A stretch of DNA of 64,000 nucleotides from Nanobdellati archaeon (GTDB lineage: Archaea > Nanobdellota > Nanobdellia > CSSed11-243R1), in assembly GCA_027007025.1 (NCBI GenBank), contig JALTFL010000004.1:4773-68772 (forward strand), in the 5' to 3' direction. Shown here piece by piece: positions 160 to 60,042 of the stretch (the stretch's first letter is position 1; each line of letters begins with the position of its first letter). The notes beneath the pieces were generated by a model. That model did not search any database and was not told the DNA's origin. It saw nothing but the letters and a program-made list of their open reading frames with translations. The position numbers were made by a program, and so were the translations under genes.

Positions 160-245
160 AAAATTTCTTTCTTTAGCGCAGGTTTCTTAACACCCTTCTT
201 TAGAAAAGAAGCGCGTCCGGAAGAAAAGAAATGAAGTATAATTAA
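160..245. repeat. Hairpin-repeat region downstream of EF-1alpha; contains motif tttctttctttagcgcaggtttctt and palindrome cttcttt-aga-aaagaag
   Basis: Motif shared with 16424-16445 (inverted), 17988-18010 and 22697-22720; pyrimidine-arm/purine-arm inverted repeats read directly. Confidence 0.5.
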
Positions 246-2167: not shown

Positions 2168-2764
2168 ATGGTTGAAATAAAAATGTTTGAAAAGTATGAT
2201 ATGAACATCGAAGTAATGGACCCTGGATTGAAAAGCTCCATAAACTTGAAACCTCTTTTTGTTCCTCAAACCTTTGGGAGACACGCAAGCCAAAGGTTCG
2301 CAAAAAGCAACGTCAATATTGTCGAAAGATTCATGAACAAGCTCATGTCACCTGGACACAAAGGAAAGAAGCACTGGAGGACAAGCGAGTTCAATTCCGG
2401 AAAGTCGCAGACTGTATATAATATTACCAAAAAAACATTTGAGATAATTGAAAAACAGACAGGCAAAAACCCTGTTGAAGTTCTTGTAAGGGCTGTCGAA
2501 AACTCGGCGCCAAGAGACGAAGTAACAGTAATTGAAATGGGTGGAATCAGAGTTCCAAAGCAGGTTGACACTTCCCCCCAAAGGAGAGTTGACTTGGCGT
2601 TAAGGTGGATAACGCAGGGTGCGTTTCAGGCAGTGGCGGACAAAAAAGTCCCAATCGAGAAAGGATTAGCAAACGAAATAATCGCTGCAAGCAAGGAAGA
2701 CCAGAAATCATTCGCGTTGTCAAAGAAAGTCGAAGTCGAAAGGCAAGCGGCAGCTTCAAGGTAA
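2168..2764 (+). CDS. rps7: Ribosomal protein S7 (uS7)
   Basis: Immediately follows S12 as in the conserved S12-S7 operon; S7-like length and composition. Confidence 0.85.
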   Translation: MVEIKMFEKYDMNIEVMDPGLKSSINLKPLFVPQTFGRHASQRFAKSNVNIVERFMNKLMSPGHKGKKHWRTSEFNSGKSQTVYNITKKTFEIIEKQTGKNPVEVLVRAVENSAPRDEVTVIEMGGIRVPKQVDTSPQRRVDLALRWITQGAFQAVADKKVPIEKGLANEIIAASKEDQKSFALSKKVEVERQAAASR

Positions 2765-2898
2765 TCTTTTTCTTAAGAAGAAAAAGCTTAACCAAAAAGA
2801 AATTTTTCTCTTAGTTAGCCCGTGTCCAACGAGGCTTTGTTCGGCACAAGCAACAAAGTCACTCTGTTTTTTCTAAAGAAAAAGTGGGTAGGCAATTA

Positions 2899-3492
2899 TT
2901 ATTTTTTAAACATTTCTCTCGTACGTTGAATATCTTCCTTGGTTATATTACTCAAAACATTGTCGTAATAACTAATTGCCTTATAATTACCATCTAATGT
3001 TGGGAAAGAATAAATCAAAGGCAATATACCTTCATTATCCCATTCCTTCTTATTGAGCATATGTGTAACATATTCTAACGACTCAACACCAAGTTGATAT
3101 ACTCTTTTAACACCATCTCCTTCTAGGTCTATATTCATACCTCTTGTAACTCCGCTGACAAGTCTAATATATGATAACAAAAAAGGAAGTACATCATCCC
3201 TCTCTGTGTTATAGAATATTTTTGCAAGTGAGGAATAAGATTCTCCACAAGTTAGTAAGGATATTAATTCAGTGGTTTCTGTTAGCAAACTTCTTCCATC
3301 ATTAAGCATAAATTCATAAGTTTTTATTTCATCAATTCTATATTTTTCAGCACCAGAATAGTCTTTTCTCCTTACTAATTGACTCGCGGTGCTGCCAATT
3401 CGATTAACTCTACTAAAAAATTCTTTACCCCATAAAGGTATGTCTGAAAAAAGAGAGTCATCAAACTCAAACCCACTACTTTCACTACTCAT
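2899..3492 (-). CDS. Hypothetical protein, start abuts pyrG stop
   Basis: 197-aa ORF with no recognisable motif; start at 3492 directly adjoins pyrG at 3493. Confidence 0.4.
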   Translation of the reverse strand: MSSESSGFEFDDSLFSDIPLWGKEFFSRVNRIGSTASQLVRRKDYSGAEKYRIDEIKTYEFMLNDGRSLLTETTELISLLTCGESYSSLAKIFYNTERDDVLPFLLSYIRLVSGVTRGMNIDLEGDGVKRVYQLGVESLEYVTHMLNKKEWDNEGILPLIYSFPTLDGNYKAISYYDNVLSNITKEDIQRTREMFKK

Positions 3493-8794: not shown

Positions 8795-9909
8795 TTCTCT
8801 TCCTCCTTCTTAACCTTAAGGTTGACAATTCCTGTCCCGACAGGAATAGGCTGATTAATCATCACATTTTCCACAACGCTTGTTAAATTGTCAACTTCCG
8901 CTGAAACCGCCGCGTGGAACAGATGCTTCAACGGCACCTCGAAGCTCGCCCTTGCCAAAACAGAAGCTTTTCCTCCGCTGACACCATAACGCCCAATTCC
9001 TTTTATAGTTCCTTCGTATGTCATAACATCTGAAACCAGCATTATGTGTCTTGGATCCACTTCAATACCCTGGTTGTTCAGGACATTAAGAGTTTCTTCA
9101 ATTATGACTTCGCGGGCTGCCTCAACGCCAAAAACGCTAAGAACTTCAAATATATTATTTGTTGTTGTATTCTCAATATCAACTTCGGGAAGTCGAAGAA
9201 TATCCTTCAAGTTGGAACCTGCCGTTTTGATTATCCATCTATCTCCCTGCTTCATTGGAAGAACTTGTTTGATACCATCAATTCCACCAACATGAATCCC
9301 CTTGAGTTTAACTTTAAGCTTGTAAATTTGTTTTATATCCACATCTTCGCCTTTTGGCTTTATGTTTATCTTGTACGAGCCGGTTGTTATCTTATACCCC
9401 TTAAACTCCTCAGAGATTATCTTTTGTATCTTCTTTTCAGTCAAATGGTACTTCCTCAAAATCTCAGGGTTTAGTTCCACTTCAACCCTCATCCTAAGCA
9501 AGTCAACATCAATTGATTTTATTACGTCGTCAAGCTTTATTTCCAAAATTTTAAAGGCAATATCCTCAACTTTCTTCTCGCTTGTGGCATAGGATGGCTT
9601 AAGATATACAATCATTGATGGTGTGCTTGGTTCTCTCTTTGCATCGAAGATTTCAATCATACGCGGCAAACCCTGTGTAACTGTCATCTCCATAGCTCCC
9701 GCAAGCCATTTCGTACGCAAGGTAAGCTGTGTACCTGGCTCACCGATGGACTGTGCAGCAACCACACCAACCGCTTCTCCCGGATCAATTAATGACTTTT
9801 CATATTGCTTCTCAGCGATTTTTCTGAGTTTCTCTACTTGTGCCTTATTAAGTTTAAGGGTTTCCTTAAGTTCTTTTAATTGTTCGTCTACAGATTGAGG
9901 GAATATCAT
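8791..9909 (-). CDS. rpoA2: DNA-directed RNA polymerase subunit A''
   Basis: [20 protein letters not shown] motif; follows rpoA'. Confidence 0.9.
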
Positions 9910-16180: not shown

Positions 16181-16294
16181 TGGGCCCGGGGGGATTCGAA
16201 CCCCTGGCCTCCTGGTTAAAAGCAACACCTTCAAATCCAATTTTATTAGAATGAATTTGAAACAGGCGCTCTGACCAGGCTGAGCTACGGGCCC
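16181..16294 (-). tRNA. tRNA-Lys (anticodon UUU) with a roughly 39-nt intron at a non-canonical position in the anticodon stem
   Basis: Minus strand reads GGGCCCG-TA-GCTC-AGCCTGGTCA-GAGC-G-CCTG[intron]G-CTTTTAA-CCAGG-AGGCC-AGGGG-TTCGAAT-CCCCC-CGGGCCC-A; acceptor stem 7 bp, canonical D-arm and T-loop; one A:C mismatch at the top of the T-stem. Confidence 0.6.
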
Positions 16295-16380: not shown

Positions 16381-16500
16381 TTTATATACCTTTCTATGCA
16401 CTTTCTCTTTCTTAGAAATAAAGAGAACCTGCGCTAAGAGAAAGAATTTCTTCCGGCAAAACCTTTCTTTGGAAAAGAAAGCTGCAGGAAAGAAAGAAGA
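16381..16500. repeat. Hairpin-repeat region (ttctcttt-cttagaaat-aaagagaa; gaacctgcgctaagagaaag; ctttcttt-ggaa-aagaaag)
   Basis: Inverted repeats with pyrimidine and purine arms; contains the shared 20-nt motif in inverted orientation. Confidence 0.5.
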
Positions 16501-16504
16501 AAAA

Positions 16505-17749
16505 CTAATTGTATTCAGGGTTAGTTACTCTGCCCATGAATAGAATTTCGCCCGTATTTTTGTCCTCGATTATAAACATGAATGGATGATTTGCCCTAAA
16601 AACAGGTTGATGCATCTGAACAGCTGTAATCCCAACCGATACTTCTGTCGCAGCTGCTGCTTCCGTTCCCTCTTCATTTACATCAATGTATGCTTGGTGG
16701 ATTACACTTTGTATTAACAATCCACCTTTCTTTGACATACCAGTTAAATCCGCACCATATGAAAATGGTGTTGGCATTCCCATTTCCTTCAAATCATTTG
16801 CCATAAAATATTTTGTTTCAAATTTAAACCTCGGCAGGTAAACCCTAACTTCCTCACTGTGAAGCTTGCTTGTCAAATCATTTATTTTTTCAACGCTCAA
16901 ACTGTTTTCAAAATCATCTAAACTTCTTGGCAAGAAAACAATCATCGACAAGTTTCCTTTATATGGCAGCTCTAAAACTTGCGTTTCATTTTTTTCATAG
17001 TATGGAAAATCTTCTTTTATATACATCATATCAACAGAAATGTTGCCATCTGGTGTGATAAAATCTTCTTTGTGGGTTGCATTTTTGTTAAACTGGTGGC
17101 TCCAGTTTCCCTTGAAGTAAATCGCATTCGTCAAGACAAGGCGCGTTGCGGAGTTTAGTACTCCTTTCGGAATCAAGTCCTTTATTTTTCCGTTTGTCTG
17201 CTGTTCAATCCAAGTGTTTATTATATTACGTGCAGATTCCTCATCCGCAAAATTTAGATTTGTAACTTTTCCGCCATAAAATTCTTCAATTATATCAAAG
17301 TAATGCTGTGAAAACGGAAAATCTTTCTGCGCCCAAAGGGCGTTTGCAGTTCGCAAGGTATAATTCTCATTTGGAGTGTTGAGTATGTTGTAAATATGCG
17401 CGAACGAAGTCCTCAGCTCGCTCGTATTTCCAGGAAAATAAAAGACATTTTTTATTTCCTTCGCAGTTCTTCCGCGGGCACCCTCATAAACCATAGCAAA
17501 AGCAGATGATATGCTGTATGGCGAAAAGAAAACATTCTGATTTTCAAACTCTGTTGAGTATTTCTTGTACAAATCAATTGCGAACTTGTTGTTTGCTTCC
17601 GCAACCGCATTGAATCCTTGCGAAGTCCAACCACTATCCTTTAAGATAATAGCGTCTTTTGAAGTGATATTCTTTGGAGTAGTTACGCAGCCAAACACAA
17701 TCGCAACAGCGAATATAACCACAATTCCCATCAAAAATTTCGAGTTCAT
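16505..17749 (-). CDS. Serpin (serine protease inhibitor), secreted with lipobox-like signal
   Basis: Hinge EEGTEAAAAT, C-terminal PFMFIIEDKNTGEILFMGRVTNP, N-terminal hydrophobic segment ending FGC. Confidence 0.85.
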   Translation of the reverse strand: MNSKFLMGIVVIFAVAIVFGCVTTPKNITSKDAIILKDSGWTSQGFNAVAEANNKFAIDLYKKYSTEFENQNVFFSPYSISSAFAMVYEGARGRTAKEIKNVFYFPGNTSELRTSFAHIYNILNTPNENYTLRTANALWAQKDFPFSQHYFDIIEEFYGGKVTNLNFADEESARNIINTWIEQQTNGKIKDLIPKGVLNSATRLVLTNAIYFKGNWSHQFNKNATHKEDFITPDGNISVDMMYIKEDFPYYEKNETQVLELPYKGNLSMIVFLPRSLDDFENSLSVEKINDLTSKLHSEEVRVYLPRFKFETKYFMANDLKEMGMPTPFSYGADLTGMSKKGGLLIQSVIHQAYIDVNEEGTEAAAATEVSVGITAVQMHQPVFRANHPFMFIIEDKNTGEILFMGRVTNPEYN

Positions 17750-17945
17750 ATATCTTGTAATACACTAGAATATATTAAGATTTCCATGACTTCAAAATCA
17801 ATAGAAATCATCTTCGTTTTCTGTTCCTATTCTTCTTCCTGCCGCGGCTCTTCTGTTTTATGATGTCTTTTCTCTTTAACCGCTTTCCTTTCCGCTTTCC
17901 CTTTCTTGATTTTGGCTGAATTGTTTTCATAAAAACACCTAGAGT

Positions 17946-17953
17946 AAAAAAAA
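17946..17953 (-). terminator. Oligo-T (T8) run immediately 3' of tRNA-Asp
   Basis: Eight T on the minus strand two nt after the discriminator base; archaeal-type oligo-T terminator. Confidence 0.4.
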
Positions 17954-17954
17954 G

Positions 17955-18195
17955 CGCCCCGACCGGGACTTTCAAACACTCGCCAAGTTTCTCTCTTAGC
18001 GCAGGTTCTCTCTTTTCAAAGAGAGAAAGTGCTTTTGAACCCGGGTCCCCGGCTTGCTGCACTCCGGAATTTCTTCCGCTGGCGCTTCTTTCTAAGAAGA
18101 GCCGTTCGACAGACCGGGATCCTAGACCAACGTCCAACCACTTTCTTTCCGTGAACTCTTTCTTTGGAAAGAAAGGGTTCCTAGACTATCGGGGC
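17955..18195 (-). tRNA. tRNA-Asp (anticodon GUC) with three introns (D-loop, anticodon loop 37/38, T-loop)
   Basis: Acceptor GCCCCGA/TCGGGGC, discriminator G; exon pieces GTCTAG...TTGGTCTAGGAT-C-CCGGT-CTGTCG[48-nt intron]A-GCCGG-GGAC-CCGGG-TTCAAA[intron]T-CCCGG; introns carry hairpin repeats; D-loop exon boundaries uncertain. Confidence 0.6.
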
Positions 18196-18238
18196 ACTAA
18201 CAAAAATGATGGACTACTCCATTTAAAAAAGTTTTGAG

Positions 18239-18398
18239 TCCCAGCGGCCGGACTTTCGAAGCCCACCCTGAGTTTCTTTCCCTCAAGGCTCTCTTTTTGA
18301 AAGAAAGGCTTGGTCGAACCAGCAACCTCACGGTTTCAACGATGGATTTCTCCACCATACCACTACAGCCGTGCGCTCTACCATTGAGCTACGCTGGG
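18239..18398 (-). tRNA. tRNA-Tyr (anticodon GUA) with two introns (anticodon loop 37/38, about 28 nt; T-loop, about 60 nt)
   Basis: CCCAGCG-TA-GCTC-AATGGTA-GAGC-G-CACGG-CTGTAG[intron]A-CCGTG-AGGTT-GCTGG-TTCGA[intron]..-CCGGC-CGCTGGG-A; C1:G72 and A73 as expected for archaeal tRNA-Tyr; anticodon intron contains a GGTGGA-GAAA-TCCATC tetraloop hairpin. Confidence 0.65.
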
Positions 18399-18457
18399 AC
18401 AAATCATTTAGACATCCGTAGGTTTAAAAGTTTTTCTTAAAATAAAAAAGAAAAAGA

Positions 18458-19888
18458 TTACTCGACTTCTATCGCGAGCACGTTTGAGAATTCTTCAACC
18501 TTTTCTCCATTCGCATCCTTGAATTCTACTTTGGCAGGAGAGAACCCAATATGTCCTAAAACCTCAACAGAAGTCCTTATCTTATACGAAAGTACTCTTT
18601 CTTCCTTCGGTTTTATACTCTCAATTTCCCATGTTACATTTTTCTTCTTTCCTTTCTTCTTGATTTCGCCGGGTATTGTTCCATAATCCCTAACTTCCTT
18701 GACAAACGCTGGAAGAGGATCGTATACTTTTACGTGCCTTAACTCGTTGTTAGTCAAGTTCTTGACTTTTATCTGAATCTTCAAGTCCATGAATCCTGGG
18801 TATCTCTTGTAGTCTACAATCTCTTTTCTCACAGTAACTTTTCTAGTCATATACCAAAACGCTGCAATTACTGCAACAGCGGCAAAAGGAATTATGAGAA
18901 TTGGAATATAACTAATTGTATAAGTGACAACCACTTCCGATTGCGGGTTAACACTTAATTTCCAAATTATCTTTCCATTTTCAAAAGAATACCCTTCTGT
19001 CATGCTCGTCGCCAGTGATTTTTCTATCCCTGAAACAGAAGAAGAAACAACACAGTTTGCAACATCAGTTCCTGTGTTTCTTACATTTGCAACATACTTT
19101 TTCCCAAGTAAATTCACAGAAGTATGCTCATTAATTACACAGTTTGAATAACTTACAACGTTAGCAACAGCATTTCCCTTTGAAGTTACATTTCCTGCAA
19201 ATAATAAAGACACCGTAAATGTATGATTGCCTGGAGATGCAGATTCAGGAAGAGTTAAGTTATCTACTGTGATTGTAGTTGTTCCCTCGCTGATATTTTG
19301 ATTATCAACTCTATATGAAAATCCTTCAATATCAGATGTAATCTCCATTGGAACAACAACTGTCTCAACAGGGTTGTATACTTCAAAACTAATTGAAAAG
19401 GGATTCCGTGGATCCAACACCTGTGGATTAATTGTTACTTTATTTATGTTAACCGACTCAAATAATTTTGGAGACTTTAAGATTTCACCCTGCAAGTAAA
19501 TTGGAGGATTTAAGGAATTGCCTTTGTCATCAAAAACCAGCAGTTTAATAAGTATCTTTCCTGGCTTTTGGTCTGACTTGACTGTAAGTGCAACATGGAT
19601 CAGCTGCTCATCGCCAGGGTTTAACGTCAAAACGCTTGGTGTAATATCAGTCAATCCTGTGAAAAGAACATTCAAGCTTAGTTTAATTGGAGATGAACCA
19701 TCATTCCTTAGAGTAACATTATACTCTAATTTGTCTCCTGGCTTTGCCTTGTCGTTAATTACCCCAACACTGTATTTGATATTTGACAAATCGTCTGCCT
19801 TTGCGGCACTTAAAATGCTAAAAAACATTACTGCAAAAAGTAAAGATAACATTATTTTTTTGGATACCATGTGATAACTTAATTCCAA
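18458..19888 (-). CDS. Cell-surface protein: signal peptide, large extracellular region, C-proximal transmembrane anchor and lysine-rich cytoplasmic tail
   Basis: N-terminal hydrophobic signal, many N-x-S/T sequons, hydrophobic helix IPILIIPFAAVAVIAAFWYM followed by RK-rich segment. Confidence 0.6.
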   Translation of the reverse strand: MELSYHMVSKKIMLSLLFAVMFFSILSAAKADDLSNIKYSVGVINDKAKPGDKLEYNVTLRNDGSSPIKLSLNVLFTGLTDITPSVLTLNPGDEQLIHVALTVKSDQKPGKILIKLLVFDDKGNSLNPPIYLQGEILKSPKLFESVNINKVTINPQVLDPRNPFSISFEVYNPVETVVVPMEITSDIEGFSYRVDNQNISEGTTTITVDNLTLPESASPGNHTFTVSLLFAGNVTSKGNAVANVVSYSNCVINEHTSVNLLGKKYVANVRNTGTDVANCVVSSSVSGIEKSLATSMTEGYSFENGKIIWKLSVNPQSEVVVTYTISYIPILIIPFAAVAVIAAFWYMTRKVTVRKEIVDYKRYPGFMDLKIQIKVKNLTNNELRHVKVYDPLPAFVKEVRDYGTIPGEIKKKGKKKNVTWEIESIKPKEERVLSYKIRTSVEVLGHIGFSPAKVEFKDANGEKVEEFSNVLAIEVE

Positions 19889-19978
19889 GATATTTATAAA
19901 TTCTTTGATGTCAAATATATCAACTTAAGCAGAGATGACTATTTAAACAACCATGTTTTTCTAAAAATTGGTGATGAA

Positions 19979-20197
19979 ATGGCAAAAATAATTCATGATA
20001 AGGAAAAATGTATAGGATGTGGATACTGTGCTTCACTATGCCCGGAGCATTGGGAGATGGGAAATGATGGAAAGGCACACTTAAAAGATGGCAAAGAAAT
20101 CAAACCCAACTTGTTTGAAAAAGAAGTAAAAGACATTGGGTGCAACAAACAAGCCGAAGAACATTGCCCAACTCATGCAATCAAAATCGAGGAGTGA
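19979..20197 (+). CDS. Small 4Fe-4S ferredoxin
   Basis: CIGCGYCASLCP cluster motif plus distal C...CP; 72 aa. Confidence 0.7.
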   Translation: MAKIIHDKEKCIGCGYCASLCPEHWEMGNDGKAHLKDGKEIKPNLFEKEVKDIGCNKQAEEHCPTHAIKIEE

Positions 20198-20202
20198 AAG
20201 AA

Positions 20203-21564
20203 ATGGAAATAAATGCCGCATATGAAATTAAAGCTAAGTCTAAACTATTGATTATACTCAAAAAAAATAAAGAAGAGAGAATAGATATCCTAAATGGCAA
20301 TCAAAATGCAGAAAGAGTTGTAGAATTAAGTACTAAATTTTCGGCAGAAGATTTAAGAAAAGCAGGTGCAAAAGCCATCAGTCTCGCCAAGCAGCTCAAA
20401 GTGGATGAAATAACAATCATAATTCCAAGCATCAAAGATTATGAAATAGCAGGACAAAGCGTGTCTGAAGGAATTATATTAGCAGATTATGACTTTGACA
20501 AATTCAAATCCAAAAAGGATGACAAAAAGATAAAAAAAGTTTTGATAGTAACATCCCACCCAATTAAAGTTGAAAAGGGAATTCAAAAAGGGAAAATTAT
20601 TGGAAAATATGTATGCTGCGCAAGGGATTTGGTAAACAACCCTTCAAATCACGCAACTCCTTCCAAACTCGCAAAAAAAATAAAGGATATTTCAAAAATC
20701 AATAAACTAAAGGTAAAAGTATACAACGAAAAGGAAATGCAAAAAATGAAAATGGGTTGCCTGCTTGGCGTCGCGCAAGGCAGTAGCAAAGAACCAAAAA
20801 TGATTGTTATTGAATATTGGGGAAATAAAAAAAGCAAAGAGTTTTATTCCCTTGTTGGCAAGGGAGTCACATTTGATTCCGGCGGAATTTCGCTAAAGCC
20901 TTCTGATAGAATGAATGAAATGAAAGGGGACATGGCTGGCGGGGCTGCCGTGGCGTGTGGAATAAACGCAATTGCAAAACTCAAACTCCCCGTAAATGTT
21001 ATGGGTGTAATACCTTGCGTCGAGAATATGCCGGGTGGAAATGCAATGAAACCGGGCGACGTACTGACTTCCATGTCCGGAAAGACAGTCGAGGTTATGA
21101 ACACCGACGCGGAAGGAAGGCTTGCCCTTGCGGACGCGATTTATTTTATATCCAAAAAGAAGCCAAAGGCAATAATGGACATTGCAACTCTGACTGGCGC
21201 ATGTGTGGTTGCATTAGGTTATAACGTTGCAGGAATTATGGGCAACAATGAAAATCTCTTAAAATCGGTTTTTAACGCAGGTGCCAAAACAAATGAAAAG
21301 GTGTGGAATCTACCATTATTTGATGAGTATAGTAACGCGATAAAAAGCAACATTGCCGACATAAAGAACATAGGCTACGAAGGCGGAGCGGCGGGAGCAA
21401 TCACGGCGGCGGCGTTCCTGAAGGAATTTGTCGGTAAAACCCCTTGGGTGCACATCGATATGGCAGGAACATTTTGGGCAAAGGAAAACAAGGATTACTT
21501 GAAAAAAGGCGCGACAGGGTGGGGAGTAAGACTTTTTGTGGAATTGTTTAATTCCCTATCCTAA
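20203..21564 (+). CDS. pepA: Leucyl aminopeptidase (M17 family)
   Basis: NTDAEGRLALADA signature; start taken at internal ATG (MEINAAYE) rather than ORF-track start 20140. Confidence 0.85.
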   Translation: MEINAAYEIKAKSKLLIILKKNKEERIDILNGNQNAERVVELSTKFSAEDLRKAGAKAISLAKQLKVDEITIIIPSIKDYEIAGQSVSEGIILADYDFDKFKSKKDDKKIKKVLIVTSHPIKVEKGIQKGKIIGKYVCCARDLVNNPSNHATPSKLAKKIKDISKINKLKVKVYNEKEMQKMKMGCLLGVAQGSSKEPKMIVIEYWGNKKSKEFYSLVGKGVTFDSGGISLKPSDRMNEMKGDMAGGAAVACGINAIAKLKLPVNVMGVIPCVENMPGGNAMKPGDVLTSMSGKTVEVMNTDAEGRLALADAIYFISKKKPKAIMDIATLTGACVVALGYNVAGIMGNNENLLKSVFNAGAKTNEKVWNLPLFDEYSNAIKSNIADIKNIGYEGGAAGAITAAAFLKEFVGKTPWVHIDMAGTFWAKENKDYLKKGATGWGVRLFVELFNSLS

Positions 21565-21732
21565 TTTTTTTTCTGTATAAAGAGCATATAATCATCACCC
21601 ACATAAACAAATTAACAGGCGACACAAAACATAGAATTGCAATTAAAAGTGCGTGCCACTTATCCTTTTGAAGAAAATCAACTATGTCATCACCTAAATT
21701 TGCGCATAATCTAAACCACTTTTTCAATGAAA

Positions 21733-22656
21733 TCACCTGGAGAATTCCTTCCTTAAGATATCAACTGAAAAATATATTAATATTGCCAGCAGAGTTGCCT
21801 TGCAAACTATAAAAAAAGTTGGGATTAAGTTCAAATCAACTTGACGAGGTATATGCCCTAAGGATACATCTATTCCGTTGCCGGATACACAAACTCTTGT
21901 GTACGTAACATTGTTATCATTACCCAAATTCACATACTTTACCCCTTCTTTTTCAAAAACAAAGTCTTTCTCATTTGATGAAATTACAAGAGTGACATTT
22001 TTCTCCCTGAATAAATAATCCAAGAGTTTCCCGTCTGGTGTTTCATACTTACTCTCTGACGGATTTATTATAGGATTATTCATTATTATTACTTTATTTT
22101 TAGCATTATCTGAAAGGGATTTATTCAACCAATTATACTGGTCTATATCAATGCTCCCCAAGCTGTTGTCTAATATAATAAACAATGAATTTGAAGTATT
22201 AAACGAAAAATAAGGATTACCAAAAATCGATTTAAACATTAAATCACTCCCATATGGGCTTTCGCTGCTGCCTATCCCAAAAATAGTAGGAACATCATAT
22301 CTCCTTGCGTTGTGAACAAATTGAGAATACTCTTCGATTATACCTTCGTCTATGAAGTTTCCATCTATCACAACAAATGAGGAATCACCACTTAAATTCA
22401 AAAAATGGTTGAATATATATATATCTCCGTTAATGTTGCCTATTACGGAAAAGCAATAGTTTGAATCATTTTTTATATCACTTATCTGATGATTATTCCA
22501 ATTGTTAGCCGGAGGGATATAACCTATTACAATAATACTCACAAGAATAGCTACAACAAGCACCATCATCCATTTATTTTCCATTTTCAGCAATATTCTA
22601 AATAAGGACACAAATTTAAAAGTTATGAAACTACTAAAAAAATCCTTTCTTTCCAA
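21733..22656 (-). CDS. Hypothetical membrane-anchored protein
   Basis: N-terminal and C-terminal hydrophobic helices, N-x-S/T sequons; no confident family assignment. Confidence 0.45.
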   Translation of the reverse strand: MERKDFFSSFITFKFVSLFRILLKMENKWMMVLVVAILVSIIVIGYIPPANNWNNHQISDIKNDSNYCFSVIGNINGDIYIFNHFLNLSGDSSFVVIDGNFIDEGIIEEYSQFVHNARRYDVPTIFGIGSSESPYGSDLMFKSIFGNPYFSFNTSNSLFIILDNSLGSIDIDQYNWLNKSLSDNAKNKVIIMNNPIINPSESKYETPDGKLLDYLFREKNVTLVISSNEKDFVFEKEGVKYVNLGNDNNVTYTRVCVSGNGIDVSLGHIPRQVDLNLIPTFFIVCKATLLAILIYFSVDILRKEFSR

Positions 22657-22684
22657 GAAAAAGTGTTCGAGTCTTTTTGAAAAA

Positions 22685-22895
22685 GCCCGACAGAAAACTT
22701 TCTCTTAGTGCAGCTTCTCTTTTCTAAAGAGAAGATGCTTCTTTTGGTAAAGCTTTTCCAACACCCTTCTTAGAAAGAAGCATACGGAAGAAACCCCGCT
22801 TTCTTTCTCTTAGCCCATGTTCTCTTTCTTTTAAGAAGGAGAAAAATTTTTTCTTTTCCGGACGCGCTTTTCTTTTTTCTAAAAAGAAAAGGGTG
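22685..22895. repeat. Hairpin-repeat region 3' of tRNA-Pro, with a degenerate tRNA-3'-end-like segment
   Basis: Hairpins cttctctt-ttcta-aagagaag and cttttcttttt-tcta-aaaagaaaag; motif ctcttagtgcagcttctc; minus strand ends GTCGGGCTTTTT, resembling the tRNA-Asp 3' end. Confidence 0.5.
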
Positions 22896-22899
22896 TTAG

Positions 22900-23131
22900 T
22901 GGGGCCGCCGAGATTTGAATTCCCGGACCATGCCAACTTCTTTTCCGTTGACGCTTTTCTTTTAAGAAAAGGGTCACTCGGGACCACGTGCATTCCAGGG
23001 TTTCTTTGGTTGAGCTTTCTTTCCCAAAGAAAGATCACCCCAGGCACGCATCCTAGACCAAGTTGTCTGCTCTTTTCTCCCTCTTTTGGTAGAGCTTTTC
23101 TCGGGAGAAAAGGCCTCTAGACCACGGCCCC
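22900..23131 (-). tRNA. tRNA-Pro (anticodon GGG) with three introns (D-loop, anticodon loop 37/38, T-loop 54/55)
   Basis: Acceptor GGGGCCG/CGGCCCC, discriminator A; GTCTAG...TTGGTCTAGGAT-G-CGTGC-CTGGGG[intron]T-GCACG-TGGTC-CCGAG-T[intron]TCAAAT-CTCGG; introns contain hairpins ctttcttt-ccc-aaagaaag and cttttctc-ggg-agaaaag. Confidence 0.6.
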
Positions 23132-23417: not shown

Positions 23418-25562
23418 CTAAAAGTCATCAATCTTAGAATTTAAACTTTTCTTTGTTACTTGTCCCCTTATCTTTTCGGCAGTTTTTCTGCCGACAATAG
23501 ATGCAAGCTTCTCAATCGGCGCCTTCTTGACGTCAGCGAGAGTTTTTATGCCGGCGCGGTAAAGCTTCCTCGCCCTGACTCTCCCAACGCCCTTGAGAGC
23601 GAGAAGATTAAGTAATTCTTCCTTTGCGCCGTTCTTCATCCTCAGGCGCAGCTTGTTAAGCGGAAGAAGCAAGTCCTTTACTTTCATTATTCTCGCGAGC
23701 TCGTAAGCGGAGTAAAGCAGCCAATCCGAGATATAAATCCTGTTTCTCAATACTCCCGGCGTCTCCTTGTATTCTTCCAGAATGGACGCGTCCGTTTTCT
23801 CGTTTATCCAGTCAAATAGCATCAATGATGTCTTAAAGGCGCGCACCCATACTTCATAATCCAAATCCCATGGGCTCGGCTCCTCAATTTCATCCGAAAA
23901 GTCAAGGTATTTGTTTTGGAGCTCTGTGAATTCCCTCGGCGAAACCCTGAGCAAAGGAAACATCTCGTTGCACGAGCATATTGAGTGAATCCAGAACATC
24001 TCGTTTTTCCTTCCGGATTTTATTTTTTCTATCAGCAAGTGCGCGGACTCTGGGTCGATATACAGCTCGGCAACCCTCTTGCCAATTCGGGTTGGGAGCA
24101 ATTTTTCTTTGGTGGAAGAAACAAAACCATATTTCAGAAGCAGTCCAATCACCTTGTCAAGCTTGACTTCAATTTTTCCCATATCGGCGTACTGCTGGGC
24201 GAAAAACGTCTTCGAGAAAAATTTCAACAGATTTTTTCTGCTCGAAACTTCCCCGCTCGCAATCAGTCCCAAAACCTGCATCCTCAAAATCGGTTCCGCG
24301 GAAAGCTTGGAATAAATTTCCTCCGGATTTCCTTTTACATACTTTTCAAAAATTTCATCCTTTTCAATTTCGGAGCGCGCAATCATAATCGCCCTGCCTT
24401 CTCTGTCAAACTTCGGGCGTCCAGCGCGTCCAAACATCTGCTGAACTTCAAGCACGGGCAGCCAGTTGCTTCCGTAGTCAGGGGAATATCTTTTAAGGTC
24501 TCTGACGAGAACTGTGTGGCTTGGAAGATTTACCCCGAAAGCAAGAGTCGGTGTCGCGGATATCAGTTTTATCAGTCCTTTCTTGAAAGCGTCTTCAATC
24601 ATCCTTTGCTGCTTGCTAACAAGTCCGGCATGGTGAAAAGCCGTCCCGTGCTTAACACATTCACTCAAAATTTCGCATTGCCTCGTCGGCGACTCAAGAA
24701 CATGCAGAATGTCATAACTCAACTTTTCAAGCTTTTCTCTTTCTTCTTCCGTCAGATATTTGTCGACTATTTTTTTGGCGTTCTTAGCGACTGCCTCGGC
24801 GTTCCTTCTACTCGAAAGGAAAACAAGAATCTGCTTTTTCATCTCAAGAGTGTCTTTTATTATTTGGTGCTCCGGCAGTTTTGCCTCCGGAAGTTTTTTT
24901 ACCTTGTCCTCAAAGTAAAGTTTCCCGTCAAGGTAAACACCATACTCCAACTCCACAGGGCGATATGTGCTCCTCACAAGGCTGGCATTGAGCCATTCTG
25001 ACAGCTCATCCGCGTTCTGTATTGTCGCGGATAGGGCTATAAGCTGGGCGTCCTTGCAGAACTCCTTAAGTCTCGTTATCAACACTTCAAGGGTAGGTCC
25101 CCTATCGGGCTGGTCAAGCACGTGTATTTCATCTATAACTATAGTGTTTACTTCGCGCAGCCAAGGCACATTGTGCCTCATAAGGGAATCCAGCTTCTCG
25201 TTCGAGCACACAATTATATCTGCCTTTTGAAGCCACGGGTCGCTCGAGTCAAAGTCACCTATCGACAGCATAACATTTAGAAAAGGATATCTTTCCTTGA
25301 ACTCATTGTACTTCTCGGAAGCGAGAGACCTCAAGGGCGTCAGATAAATTGCCTTTCCGCCTTTTGTCAAAATATTGTTGACAATCGCAATCTCGGCGAC
25401 AAGAGTCTTACCGCTCGCGGTCGGGCTGGCTATAACTAAATTTTTGCCCTCAAGAAGTCCCTCGTTAATCGCAAGCTCCTGGGGGGGACGAAAACTTTCT
25501 ATGTCTTTTAATCTATCATAGAGTTCTTTCGGGAGTTTATGCTTTATGTGTATCGGCTTCAC
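23418..25562 (-). CDS. hel308: Ski2-like DNA helicase (Hel308/Hjm family)
   Basis: Walker A ASPTASGKT, DEIH box, C-terminal helix-hairpin-helix LLALKGVGRVRARKL. Confidence 0.8.
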   Translation of the reverse strand: MKPIHIKHKLPKELYDRLKDIESFRPPQELAINEGLLEGKNLVIASPTASGKTLVAEIAIVNNILTKGGKAIYLTPLRSLASEKYNEFKERYPFLNVMLSIGDFDSSDPWLQKADIIVCSNEKLDSLMRHNVPWLREVNTIVIDEIHVLDQPDRGPTLEVLITRLKEFCKDAQLIALSATIQNADELSEWLNASLVRSTYRPVELEYGVYLDGKLYFEDKVKKLPEAKLPEHQIIKDTLEMKKQILVFLSSRRNAEAVAKNAKKIVDKYLTEEEREKLEKLSYDILHVLESPTRQCEILSECVKHGTAFHHAGLVSKQQRMIEDAFKKGLIKLISATPTLAFGVNLPSHTVLVRDLKRYSPDYGSNWLPVLEVQQMFGRAGRPKFDREGRAIMIARSEIEKDEIFEKYVKGNPEEIYSKLSAEPILRMQVLGLIASGEVSSRKNLLKFFSKTFFAQQYADMGKIEVKLDKVIGLLLKYGFVSSTKEKLLPTRIGKRVAELYIDPESAHLLIEKIKSGRKNEMFWIHSICSCNEMFPLLRVSPREFTELQNKYLDFSDEIEEPSPWDLDYEVWVRAFKTSLMLFDWINEKTDASILEEYKETPGVLRNRIYISDWLLYSAYELARIMKVKDLLLPLNKLRLRMKNGAKEELLNLLALKGVGRVRARKLYRAGIKTLADVKKAPIEKLASIVGRKTAEKIRGQVTKKSLNSKIDDF

Positions 25563-58681: not shown

Positions 58682-58707
58682 CCCACCTTCTCTTTAGAAA
58701 AGAGAAG

Positions 58708-60042
58708 TTGGACCAAGAGAAATGTGATATGATGAGTGAAAATATTCCATACGATGCAATTGAAAAAAAAGATTCTGAGATTTTCAAGTACTTAAATCTT
58801 GAAGTTGAAAGACAAAAGGAAGTTCTCAACATGATTCCTTCCGAGAATTATGTCTCAAAGGCTGTGCTTGAAGCCAGCGGAAGTATCCTAACAAACAAAT
58901 ACGCTGAAGGTTATCCAGGAAAAAGATATTACCAGGGCATGTCAAATGTCGACGAGATTGAAAAGATTGCAATCGAAAGGGCGAAAAAACTTTTCGGGGC
59001 AGAGCACGCAAATGTCCAGCCATACTCTGGAAGCCCGGCGAACGCGGCAATTTATTACGCTCTTTTGAAACCCGGAGACAAGATAATGGGAATGCGACTC
59101 GACATGGGCGGACACCTTACGCACGGGCACAACGTCAATTTCTCGGCGCGTTTTTACAAGTCAACACCTTATGTTCTCGACAAGGAAACCCAAATGCTTG
59201 ATATGGACGAAATAAGAAAACTTGCAATCAGAGAAAAACCGAAATTGATAATTTCTGGTTATACAGCATATCCGCGAAAAATTCCATTCAAGGAGTTTCA
59301 TGAGATAGCTGAAGAAGTCGGCGCGTATTCAATGGCGGACATTTCCCACATATCTGGATTGATTGTCGGAGGCGTTCATCCTTCACCTTTTCCATTCACG
59401 GATGTTGTCATGACAACAACACACAAGACGCTTAGAGGTCCACGCGGGGCAATTATTCTCTCAAAAAAAGAGGACAGACTCGCGAATGTTGAAGGGCTTG
59501 ACGAAAAGAAGGCAAAAAGGGCAAAGAATCTCGCCTTGAAAATTGACAGGGCTGTTTTTCCCGGACTGCAGGGAGGACCACACATGAACGTAATCGCCGC
59601 GAAGGCAGTAGCCTTTGAGGAGGCAATGACGCCGGAGTTCAAGGATTACGCGAAACAGGTTGTAACAAACGCAAAAGTGCTTGCGGAAACTCTTCTTGAC
59701 AACGGCGTAAAACTTGTTACTGGCGGAACTGACAACCATTTGATTTTAATTGACTTGACACCTATTGGCGTCGGGATTGGAAAGGAAGTCGCTGTCGCCC
59801 TTGAAAACGCGGGCATAGTCGCGAACATGAACACAATTCCATACGACCCGTCAACGCCGTTCAAGCCGTCGGGATTGAGAATCGGGACTCCGCTTTTGAC
59901 AACACGCGGAATGAAAGAGGAAGAAATGCAAATAATCGGCGAGTGGATTTCAAGAATAATCCTCAACAGAAAAGACGCCGCGCTCCAAAAGAAAACAAAA
60001 GAAGAAGTCAAAGCGCTCTGCGAGAAATTTCCTTTTTACTAA
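58708..60042 (+). CDS. glyA: Serine hydroxymethyltransferase
   Basis: PLP-lysine motif TTTHKTLRGPRG. Confidence 0.9.
   Translation: MDQEKCDMMSENIPYDAIEKKDSEIFKYLNLEVERQKEVLNMIPSENYVSKAVLEASGSILTNKYAEGYPGKRYYQGMSNVDEIEKIAIERAKKLFGAEHANVQPYSGSPANAAIYYALLKPGDKIMGMRLDMGGHLTHGHNVNFSARFYKSTPYVLDKETQMLDMDEIRKLAIREKPKLIISGYTAYPRKIPFKEFHEIAEEVGAYSMADISHISGLIVGGVHPSPFPFTDVVMTTTHKTLRGPRGAIILSKKEDRLANVEGLDEKKAKRAKNLALKIDRAVFPGLQGGPHMNVIAAKAVAFEEAMTPEFKDYAKQVVTNAKVLAETLLDNGVKLVTGGTDNHLILIDLTPIGVGIGKEVAVALENAGIVANMNTIPYDPSTPFKPSGLRIGTPLLTTRGMKEEEMQIIGEWISRIILNRKDAALQKKTKEEVKALCEKFPFY

Follow-up and report, generated by a model that had tools for sequence, protein, structure and literature searches.

A family of A/T-rich potential intrastrand triplex repeats in the tRNA introns and intergenic spacers of a DPANN archaeon

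We have analyzed a 64,000-nucleotide stretch of DNA (contig JALTFL010000004.1 of assembly GCA_027007025.1, positions 4,773 to 68,772; hereafter the window) from the DPANN lineage "Nanoarchaeota", and find that it contains ~19 copies of one short repeat module. Read 5′ to 3′, a module comprises a pyrimidine arm, a loop of 2–4 nt, a complementary purine arm, a linker of 5–9 nt and a second block of purines. This block was overlooked in an earlier note on the sequence; it repeats the purine arm in mirror image rather than directly. The three blocks covary, the modules are in large excess over chance, they reside in introns and spacers, and they are rapidly gained, lost and exchanged between close relatives. 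The sequences lead us to favor, at a probability of about 0.55, the view that the family is A/T-rich and belongs to the class II potential intrastrand triplex repeats (i.e. a pyrimidine block, a purine block and then a reverse-Hoogsteen block; PMC4666352), and that its members turn over quickly, are defined by their structure and are tolerated nowhere but in spacers and spliced-out introns.

The relation of the second purine block (the third strand, or tail) to the hairpin is the key to the architecture. In 16 modules of the window the tail fits its own arm better than the arms of the other modules (0 of 2000 permutations reached the observed match), and the mirror fit equals or exceeds the direct fit in 15 of them. 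Where an arm is nearly symmetric, such as AAAGAAAG, mirror and direct repeats are barely distinguishable, so asymmetric arms were sought. Among 117 candidate modules from archaeal loci (i.e. a hairpin followed by a purine tail) the mirror wins wherever the arm is asymmetric. Thus A5GA4 is followed by A4GA5, AAGAAAAG by AAAAGAA, GAAGAAAG by GAAAGAAG and AAAGAGAAG by AAGAGAAA. Block orders such as (3,1,2) followed by (2,1,3) exclude a phase-shifted direct repeat. For an unbiased test of the tail, metagenome contigs were scanned for CTTTTCTT, a loop and AAGAAAAG, followed by any seven purines. In the 136 modules so obtained, from 113 metagenome loci, the tail matched the mirror AAAAGAA in 107 and the direct repeat AAGAAAA in 11; counted exclusively this is 99 mirror against 3 direct (p = 7e-26), among copies that are partly related by descent. 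The base preceding the third block is C in 95 of 107. Orthologous introns continue to obey the mirror rule after their arms have changed. RNAfold predicts that the tail pairs preferentially with the pyrimidine arm only if the arms are symmetric; for asymmetric arms it is imperfect, unlike the mirror match, which is perfect. Watson-Crick pairing of tail and pyrimidine arm was therefore rejected as the selected feature, as asymmetric arms are followed by the mirror and not by the complement.

The hairpins greatly exceed expectation. With perfect arms of at least 8 nt and a loop of 2–5 nt there are 10 pyrimidine-first hairpins in the window, compared with 0.13 in dinucleotide shuffles; with arms of at least 7 nt there are 12 compared with 0.8, and with arms of at least 6 nt there are 17 in the window. 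No hairpin of the opposite polarity, with the purine arm first, was found in the window. They lie at 195-211, 2766-2786, 2868-2883, 16398-16481, 18006-18303, 22646-23112 and 58687-58707. A purine tail follows 16 of 18 hairpins, on one side only, as a linker of 5–8 nt and then a purine run of 7–19 nt. A census of the window on the lines of the program ITxF, with stems of at least 7 nt, gave 12 class II motifs and none of class I; 40 dinucleotide shuffles averaged 0.05 class II motifs. The earlier description of at least 12 pyrimidine/purine inverted repeats is thus real and far above chance, apart from the segment 17808-17930, which does not belong to the family. Copies are present at the places then given, and also at ~2.8 kb (2764-2886) and 58.7 kb (58684-58722).

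Two sequence motifs had been singled out as recurring elements. They do recur, and prove to be parts of the same module: each is a linker together with its third strand, in one of two linker subtypes (CCTGCGCT and CGCGTCC). With up to 2 mismatches allowed, the 20-nt motif CTTTCTCTTAGCGCAGGTTCTC matches four times where none is expected, at 16423-16444 (minus strand), 17989-18010, 22698-22719 and 22803-22824 (all plus strand). The number four is as originally counted; however, the copy reported near 160 is partial and degenerate, more than 3 mismatches away, and the fourth good copy is that at 22803. The companion motif GCGCGTCCGGAA occurs once in each orientation, as had been noted, at 211-227 (plus) and 22851-22867 (minus). 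A mirror relation between the linkers CGCGTCC and CCTGCGC was taken as coincidence; copies in ANME-1 archaea lack it.

It might be argued that such modules are a chance by-product of low-complexity purine and pyrimidine tracts, or a simple local duplication. The arms are of low complexity and A/T-rich, and A/T-rich triplex motifs are common in scrambled genomes (PMC4666352). Against this stand the census (12 versus 0.05), the hairpins (10 versus 0.13) and the 20-mer (4 versus 0 expected), the strict polarity, the 99 to 3 mirror preference, and the presence of copies at 0.2, 2.8, 16–18, 22–23 and 58.7 kb and in other genomes. The shuffle controls already refute this explanation, to which we attach a negligible probability.

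Known elements do not account for the family. It is not a CRISPR array, as the earlier note had recognized: the copies are of mixed orientation, irregular spacing and variable sequence, with no regular direct repeats of 24–48 nt separated by unique spacers. Intrinsic terminators are ruled out by the A/T-richness of the hairpins and by what comes after them, a linker and purine block rather than a run of T. A search of the window and 18 loci against Rfam, at gathering and E-value thresholds, gave no match to the module (two miRNA matches far below threshold are attributed to chance). Scans of viral contigs with the two linker motifs gave only chance matches without a hairpin, and thus no sign of a viral origin.

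The copies in the window are as follows, each written as pyrimidine arm-loop-purine arm, linker and third strand where these are present.

160..191, plus strand: degenerate half-module; a pyrimidine run, AGCGCAGG linker and short pyrimidine run, beside module 1 and downstream of EF-1alpha.
192..231, plus strand: module 1; CCCTTCTTT-aga-AAAGAAG, linker cgcgtcc, third strand GGAAGAAAAGAAA; antisense to local genes.
2764..2802, plus strand: module 2; CTTTTTCTT-aag-AAGAAAAAG, linker cttaacc, third strand AAAAAGAAA; 1–2 nt past the S7 stop codon.
2803..2886, minus strand: long-linker variant; hairpin TTTTTCT/AGAAAAA, a conserved insert of ~50 nt with its own hairpin, tail AAGAGAAAAA; just after the open reading frame (ORF) 2899-3492.
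16398..16446, plus strand: module 3; linker cctgcgct, third strand AAGAGAAAG; in the serpin/tRNA-Leu spacer, antisense to local genes.
16447..16485, minus strand: module 4; CTTTCTTT hairpin, linker gttttgcc, third strand GGAAGAAA; in the serpin 3′ flank.
17985..18030, minus strand: module 5; TTCTCTCTTT-ga-AAAGAGAGAA, linker cctgcgct, third strand AAGAGAGAAA, mirror match 10/10; tRNA-Asp T-loop intron.
18070..18101, minus strand: module 6; CTTCTT-aga-AAGAAG, linker cgccagc, third strand GGAAGAAA; tRNA-Asp anticodon-loop intron.
18141..18178, minus strand: module 7; CTTTCTTT-cc-AAAGAAAG, linker agttcac, third strand GGAAAGAAAG; tRNA-Asp D-loop intron.
18262..18306, minus strand: module 8; purine arm decayed, linker ccttgag, third strand GGAAAGAAA intact; tRNA-Tyr T-loop intron.
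22643..22663, minus strand: hairpin-only copy; TTTCTT-gga-AAGAAA; at the end of the array.
22698..22737, minus strand: module 10; CTTCTCTTT-aga-AAAGAGAAG, linker ctgcact, third strand AAGAGAAAG.
22738..22759, minus strand: truncated copy lacking the pyrimidine arm; GGAAAAG, linker ctttacc (the ANME-1 consensus linker), AAAAGAAG.
22761..22793, plus strand: module 11, in the opposite orientation; ACACCCTTCTT-aga-AAGAAG, linker catac, third strand GGAAGAAA.
22799..22846, minus strand: module 12; imperfect 11-nt hairpin, linker catgggct, third strand AAGAGAAAGAAAG.
22847..22897, minus strand: module 13; CTTTTCTTTTT-aga-AAAAAGAAAAG, linker cgcgtcc, third strand GGAAAAGAAAAAA, mirror match 11/11; 3 nt past the tRNA-Pro 3′ end.
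22937..22975, minus strand: module 14; CTTTTCTT-aa-AAGAAAAG, linker cgtcaac, third strand GGAAAAGAAG, mirror score 8 and direct score 6; tRNA-Pro intron 3.
23001..23036, minus strand: module 15; CTTTCTTT-ggg-AAAGAAAG, linker ctcaacc, third strand AAAGAAA then ccc; tRNA-Pro intron 2.
23070..23114, minus strand: module 16; CTTTTCTC-cc-GAGAAAAG, linker ctctacc, third strand AAAAGAGGGAGAAAAGAG; tRNA-Pro intron 1.
58684..58722, plus strand: module 17; CTTCTCTTT-aga-AAAGAGAAG, linker ttggacc, third strand AAGAGAAA; between the MCM stop codon and the serine hydroxymethyltransferase start.

Stems are 6–11 nt in length, the first loop is 2–4 nt and the second 5–9 nt. The long-linker variant, with its ~50-nt insert CAGAGYGACTTYGTYGCTTGTGCCGARACAAAG.CTCGT, has a similar counterpart in another compared locus (L254, ~9557-9660). 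Between the two there is one compensatory change of T:A to C:G, and the loop GCTTGTGCCG is invariant; the insert may be a nested small RNA or protein site. The excluded segment 17808-17930 encodes on its minus strand an extremely basic ORF of 40 amino acids, MKTIQPKSRKGKRKGKRLKRKDIIKQKSRGRKKNRNRKRR, just downstream of tRNA-Asp, and for this reason the plus strand is rich in pyrimidines there. A similar purine-rich ORF occupies the same place in a related locus (L130, ~20352-20490).

Many of the modules lie inside tRNA genes, of which there are four in this region.

16181-16294: tRNA-Leu; canonical intron, without a module.
17955..18195, minus strand: tRNA-Asp(GTC); three introns, in the D-loop, at 37/38 and in the T-loop.
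18239..18398, minus strand: tRNA-Tyr(GTA); a canonical intron without a module and a T-loop intron with one.
22900..23131, minus strand: tRNA-Pro(GGG); three introns, in the D-loop, at 37/38 and at 53/54.

Three of the four are missed by standard tRNA finders because of their multiple non-canonical introns. ARAGORN found no tRNA in the raw window and only the canonical tRNA-Leu in its intron mode, and this was also the only tRNA found in the window by Rfam. The introns were parsed by eye and removed in silico, and the spliced sequences were run again in ARAGORN, which then called tRNA-Pro(GGG) and tRNA-Tyr(GTA). For the third gene the unshifted parse gave an undetermined anticodon of four bases, gtcg; of 729 variants in which boundaries were moved by up to 1 nt, 144 came out as tRNA-Asp(GTC). 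The original assignments and coordinates of the three genes therefore hold, that of tRNA-Asp only after a shift of 1 nt at a boundary. Genomes of this type among the DPANN archaea will look poor in tRNA in automatic annotation unless such introns are modeled.

The window introns hold seven well-formed modules and one that is degenerate, the tRNA-Tyr T-loop copy listed above. All have the same orientation, with the third strand 3′ on the sense strand. The modules outside introns lie just after genes or tRNAs. The placement first described, in the introns of these three tRNAs and in spacers beside tRNA and EF-1alpha genes, is confirmed. In tRNA-Pro intron 3, by eye, exon CCCG pairs with intron CGGG, the h′ helix is GACC:GGTC, and the bulges of 3 nt are AG^T and AA^T. 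The splice motif was drawn in this way only for this intron and for intron 2 of locus L047, and has a central helix of 4 bp, two 3-nt bulges and an h′ helix of 3–4 bp. Since it can be formed by exon-specific flanks that lie outside the module, the module would be an apical insert of the intron. Direct repeats at the intron borders were considered as target-site duplications and rejected; they are inconsistent between introns, and some are the palindromes that the splice motif requires.

The gene content of the window is archaeal (EF-1alpha, EF-2, split RpoB, RpoA′, Hel308, MCM, S7, S12, serpin and M17 peptidase) and its GC content is ~38%. The same EF-1alpha and Hel308 proteins are present in an NCBI metagenome-assembled genome (MAG), GCA_015522785.1, and the nearest named homologues of Hel308 are from "Nanoarchaeota" and other DPANN archaea. 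One of the homologues (P0006, 1222 amino acids, 82% identical across half its length) contains intein and homing-endonuclease domains that are lacking in the window Hel308 (23418-25562). Relatives for comparison were obtained via the Hel308 homologues, the compared loci being labeled with L-numbers. The Hel308 of L130 (genome GCA_021162365.1) is 86% identical, and that of L253 is 84% identical.

The three tRNAs have identical exons in L130, and introns at the same sites except for the third tRNA-Asp intron, which is at 53/54 and contains a different module. Arms, loops and third strands of the intron modules have changed together. Module 6 is 90% identical to its L130 orthologue, and the orthologue of the decayed module 8 is intact. 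The first introns are related crosswise. Intron 1 of the window tRNA-Pro is 89% identical to tRNA-Asp intron 1 of L130 and 70% identical to tRNA-Pro intron 1 there; intron 1 of the window tRNA-Asp is 76% identical to tRNA-Pro intron 1 of L130 and 58% identical to its tRNA-Asp intron 1. This indicates that D-loop introns have been exchanged between tRNA-Pro and tRNA-Asp, genes that share their D-arm sequence. Intron 2 of tRNA-Pro has been replaced in L130 (49% identity), and the array of five to six modules (~240 bp) that follows tRNA-Pro in the window is absent from it. In L253 the orthologous tRNA after Hel308 has neither introns nor array, and the T-loop intron of tRNA-Tyr carries the hairpin type found in the tRNA-Asp T-loop intron of the window. 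Two further tRNAs with five module introns are present on another contig of the L130 genome, and L254 shows two more. No target-site duplication is visible on comparing the filled site after tRNA-Pro in the window with the empty sites in L130 and L253. The intronless tRNA-Pro orthologue of L253 (11173-11247) has the anticodon loop CTGCGGC (i.e. anticodon GCG, which would read Arg codons) in a body that is Pro-like; this may be an anticodon shift or an assembly variant.

The comparison with related genomes for which the earlier note had called thus reveals introns that are swapped, an orthologue with no introns, and an array present in the window and absent from its relatives. Its proposal of a mobile or intron-derived family stands insofar as one loosely mobile family is shared by introns and spacers. 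It is unsupported in the sense of a miniature inverted-repeat transposable element (MITE), for there are no terminal inverted repeats with target duplications and no evidence of a transposase.

Beyond these relatives, a genome scan with the symmetric arm gave at least 119 loci. Among the matches listed, ANME-1/Methanophagales have many copies per genome, with the consensus aaacCTTTCTTTnnnAAAGAAAGctttaccAAAGAAAc; other archaea include several DPANN groups, Bathyarchaeota and Altiarchaeales, and there are many Bacteria (among them Clostridia, Selenomonadaceae, candidate phyla radiation, Ignavibacteria, Thermodesulfobacteriota and Lysobacteraceae). Pseudoflavonifractor capillosus An827 and Flavonifractor sp. 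An92 are carriers of the bacterial form that can be cultured. Bacterial copies typically have a covarying stem extension of 4 bp, one C, the third block and then CTTT. The copies are mostly intergenic, often beginning 0–20 nt past the stop codon of unrelated genes. The diversity of these upstream genes (EF-Tu, UvrA, MutL, CDC48, seryl-tRNA synthetase-like, S7 and MCM) led us to reject a gene-specific cis-regulatory element.

The ANME-1 loci (L013, L025, L034, L038, L077, L099 and others) have linkers CTTTACC or TTTGATC, and a type-2 linker TTAGCACAGG. Identical linkers occur in ANME-1 and in the DPANN lineage (window 22738-22759; L047 1880-1900), and the Nanoarchaeota MAG AUK188 and Methanophagales MAG AUK217 are from the same sampling series. 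The shared linkers could reflect a shared constraint, transfer of the element, or a link between host and symbiont. In two ANME-1 loci (L036, ~970-1045, and L086, ~2150-2225) a module directly follows the 3′ end of a tRNA, as module 13 does, and is not in an intron. Two bacterial metagenome contigs (L143, 6600-6900, and L225, 2180-2440, both minus strand) have tandem arrays, made up either of a repeat unit of ~76 nt that begins at a stop codon and includes the module, or of modules joined head to tail.

The structural class is known. The closest match is the class II group of potential intrastrand triplex (PIT) motifs, BoxC and TM-ECO (Hoyne and Maher 2000/2002; Holder et al. 2015, PMC4666352), which likewise have three consecutive blocks on one strand. 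Such motifs are abundant in prokaryotic genomes, intergenic and without promoter or terminator activity, have no associated transposase or mobility genes, and are linked to local genomic instability; an isolated strand of the E. coli motif forms a stable triplex in vitro (PMC4666352). The window family resembles BoxC and PIT in being multi-copy, non-coding, more frequent than in shuffled genomes, present in either orientation, without a linked mobility gene and unstable between relatives, and its pyrimidine-first hairpins, 3′ mirror purine blocks and excess over shuffles are those of class II. The limits for the class, as set out in PMC4666352, are stems of at least 6–8 nt and loops of 0–10 nt (Hoyne and Maher) or 1–6 nt (ITxF); the second loop of 5–9 nt (3 nt in BoxC) lies within the former, and several copies exceed the 6 nt of the latter. 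In sequence the families are not related. BoxC/TM-ECO (CCCTCNCCC N3-6 GGGNGAGGG N3 GGGNGAGGG) is G/C-rich and nearly invariant (CCCTCNCCC..GGGNGAGGG..GGGNGAGGG), whereas the window family is A/T-rich with variable arms, occurs in a DPANN archaeon, inside tRNA introns and directly after stop codons, and has a strong bias to the sense strand where BoxC is reported to be unbiased.

Other comparisons are less close. The introns resemble the transposed introns of Thermoproteales (Fujishima et al. 2010, as related in PMC4090602), where there are several per tRNA at non-canonical positions (D-loop, 53/54 and T-loop), with sequence shared between tRNAs and positions and recent gain judged from close relatives; their transposition is thought, in that account, to act at the DNA level. 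The window introns have the same marks, namely similarity across tRNAs and positions and gain and loss among close relatives. They differ in belonging to a DPANN archaeon and in having as core a triplex-type module that is also found in spacers, a feature absent from what PMC4090602 relates of Thermoproteales. The G-rich repeat with adjacent C-tract of Methanomicrobiaceae (PMC8044849) is also archaeal, intergenic and recurrent, with a hairpin and an antiparallel purine third strand, and forms an antiparallel triplex or G-quadruplex in vitro; it differs in being G/C-rich, with its third strand 5′ of the hairpin (resembling class I), in its G-quadruplex potential and in not being in introns. Repetitive extragenic palindromic (REP) sequences and bacterial interspersed mosaic elements share with the modules a short palindromic repeat, single or clustered, just downstream of stop codons. 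REPs however lack the mirror third strand, and have at the 5′ side a conserved tetranucleotide recognized by the REP-associated tyrosine transposase (RAYT), and no conserved GTAG head of this type was seen in the modules. The complementary strand has the topology of MALAT1 and the element for nuclear expression (i.e. Hoogsteen pyrimidine strand, Watson-Crick pyrimidine strand and then purine strand), but that strand is antisense in 16 of 19 window copies, with no poly(A) or end generated by RNase P. We found no report of triplex motifs in tRNA introns in the literature.

No other standard nucleic acid structure, and no protein symmetry, requires a mirror repeat, and from this we infer that the symmetry is kept because the strand folds as a hairpin with a third strand. 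When single stranded, as the non-template strand of a transcription bubble or as the lagging-strand template, the two arms would form the hairpin and the third block could then turn back into the major groove and lie antiparallel to the purine arm, making A*A:T and G*G:C reverse-Hoogsteen triples; the complementary strand would have the matching pyrimidine-motif layout. Such a triplex may form in vivo, and it would act at the level of DNA, since purine-motif triplexes are reported not to form in RNA and the helices have no wobble signature. Turnover would occur by recombination or gene conversion among copies. The modules would persist only where harmless, i.e. in spacers right past stop codons and tRNA 3′ ends, or in the apical part of bulge-helix-bulge introns whose exon-specific flanks would ensure that the module is spliced out.

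The wobble signature was sought in the stem extension. In 214 distinct modules the extension is 86–88% Watson-Crick paired, with 16 G.T and 23 A.C pairs; as G.T is no more common than A.C there is no sign of RNA wobble, which argues against selection on a one-strand RNA helix. At the junction of the core helix and the extension a C.C mismatch is found on the class II strand in 26 cases, compared with 2 for G.G (ANME-1 and window modules).

A number of points weigh against a triplex acting in DNA. In vivo footprinting of BoxC detected no triplex (PMC4666352). Many bacterial and ANME-1 copies have a Watson-Crick stem extension of 4–5 bp between purine arm and third block, which leaves 1–3 unpaired nt and would be sterically awkward for a fold-back triplex unless the extension melts. 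The metagenome copies behind the mirror test, being in part of shared phylogenetic descent, are not all independent. Orientation in the window is 16 sense to 3 antisense (manual count; binomial p = 0.004), and metagenome copies are co-oriented with the upstream gene in 49 cases against 19; a purely DNA-level selfish repeat does not predict such a bias. Lastly, placement 0–20 nt past stop codons hints at a function at the level of RNA or translation. The strand bias in the archaeon could be due to avoidance of oligo-T terminators on the sense strand; T5 is found in 0 of 15 intron modules and in 5 of 11 that are intergenic (Fisher p = 0.007, manual count). This account is weaker for bacteria, so that a role linked to transcription or RNA stays a serious rival.

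In that alternative the hairpin and purine strand fold in transcripts as a triple-helical or pseudoknot-like cap. In introns the cap would compact the intron so that short flanks form the bulge-helix-bulge, or would stabilize the excised circular intron; after stop codons it would block 3′-to-5′ decay or mark a site of processing or termination. We consider the proposal unlikely. It draws on the sense orientation, seen in 8 of 8 window introns in addition to the counts above, on the position of the hairpin foot 0–20 nt past stop codons of unrelated genes, and on the enclosure of modules by flanks able to form an HBh′-type motif (by eye, in tRNA-Pro intron 3). In ~10 of 16 intron modules the loop is also Watson-Crick complementary to the 2–3 nt that follow the third strand (CCA/TGG, GGG/CCC, GGA/TCC and CC/GG). 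This pseudoknot clasp is striking by eye, but in a formal shuffle test the 11 of 32 observed, against 7.2 expected, was reached in 389 of 5000 shuffles and is not significant; the clasp is retained as no more than a lead. Purine-motif triple helices do not form in RNA according to literature cited in PMC4666352. Moreover there is no enrichment of G.U wobble in the helices, the pairing of arm and tail in RNAfold depends on symmetric arms, and both orientations occur within one array (22761-22793 and its neighbors). The intronless orthologue shows that the introns are dispensable, which also counts against the proposal.

The multi-copy nature of the modules, their two orientations, presence and absence between relatives, REP-like position past stop codons, and arrays in the window and in bacteria would also fit a non-autonomous transposable element (like a MITE, a REP or a palindrome-associated transposable element) that inserts past stop codons and into tRNA genes, moved by a hairpin-recognizing enzyme, for instance an IS200/IS605-type or RAYT-type HUH/Y1 transposase. 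The linkers cTTTACc, TTGATc and TCAAc presumably resemble target or cleavage tetranucleotides of IS608/ISDra2. We nevertheless think a transposon distinctly improbable. The arms are only 2–4 nt apart and so are not the ends of an element; there is no target-site duplication after tRNA-Pro; arm sequences change freely with the three-way symmetry intact, which is not how the binding sites of a single transposase behave; and many phyla of bacteria and archaea have the same architecture. A scan of 20 window proteins, a minority of the ORFs, gave no transposase domain, and no mobility genes were found near BoxC (PMC4666352). Less probable still is that the modules are protein-binding sites. The protein would be a dimer that contacts DNA at the palindrome and a third half-site, or else an Sm/Hfq-like RNA-binding factor on the A/G-rich strand. 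A palindromic core with a third related block at fixed spacing is what such sites might look like, as is the frequent C before the third block, and we take the purine blocks to fit (ARN)n-like motifs. However, the arms vary from copy to copy in a single genome (CTTTCTTT, CTTTTCTT, CTTCTCTTT, TTCTCTCTTT and others), the changes being compensated; a sequence-specific protein would not tolerate this, and the symmetry of a protein dimer does not yield mirror symmetry. The protein-binding palindromes suggested in the earlier note leave the mirror block unexplained, since mirror symmetry is meaningless for a protein on B-DNA.

We return to the class II repeat as the favored reading. The structural class was already known, described in bacteria without an assigned function. 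What is new is the A/T-rich covarying form, its spread across domains just past stop codons, and its presence as the common core of DPANN non-canonical tRNA introns. It is 25 years since intrastrand triplex repeats became known in bacteria, and it was doubted that the A/T-rich ones are more than chance; strict three-way covariation, also between orthologous loci, is evidence from evolution that the symmetry of the three blocks as such is kept.

Nearly every non-canonical tRNA intron of this DPANN lineage is built around a module, so that the spread of the module and the gain and exchange of introns are probably the same process. A bolder proposal, which we regard as doubtful, is that a triplex-type module is the engine of tRNA intron gain in DPANN archaea (i.e. 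an introner for bulge-helix-bulge introns), and that a transcription-coupled triplex function underlies the mirror preference in both domains. A self-folding cassette would land in tRNA genes and spacers, or be copied between them, by a structure-induced break, gene conversion or reverse splicing. If this were true, the 99 to 3 mirror preference past stop codons in Bacteria and Archaea would reflect a function of the intrastrand triplex coupled to transcription. With the module at the core of these introns, the old question of how tRNA introns arise and move in archaea can be tested on a concrete sequence.

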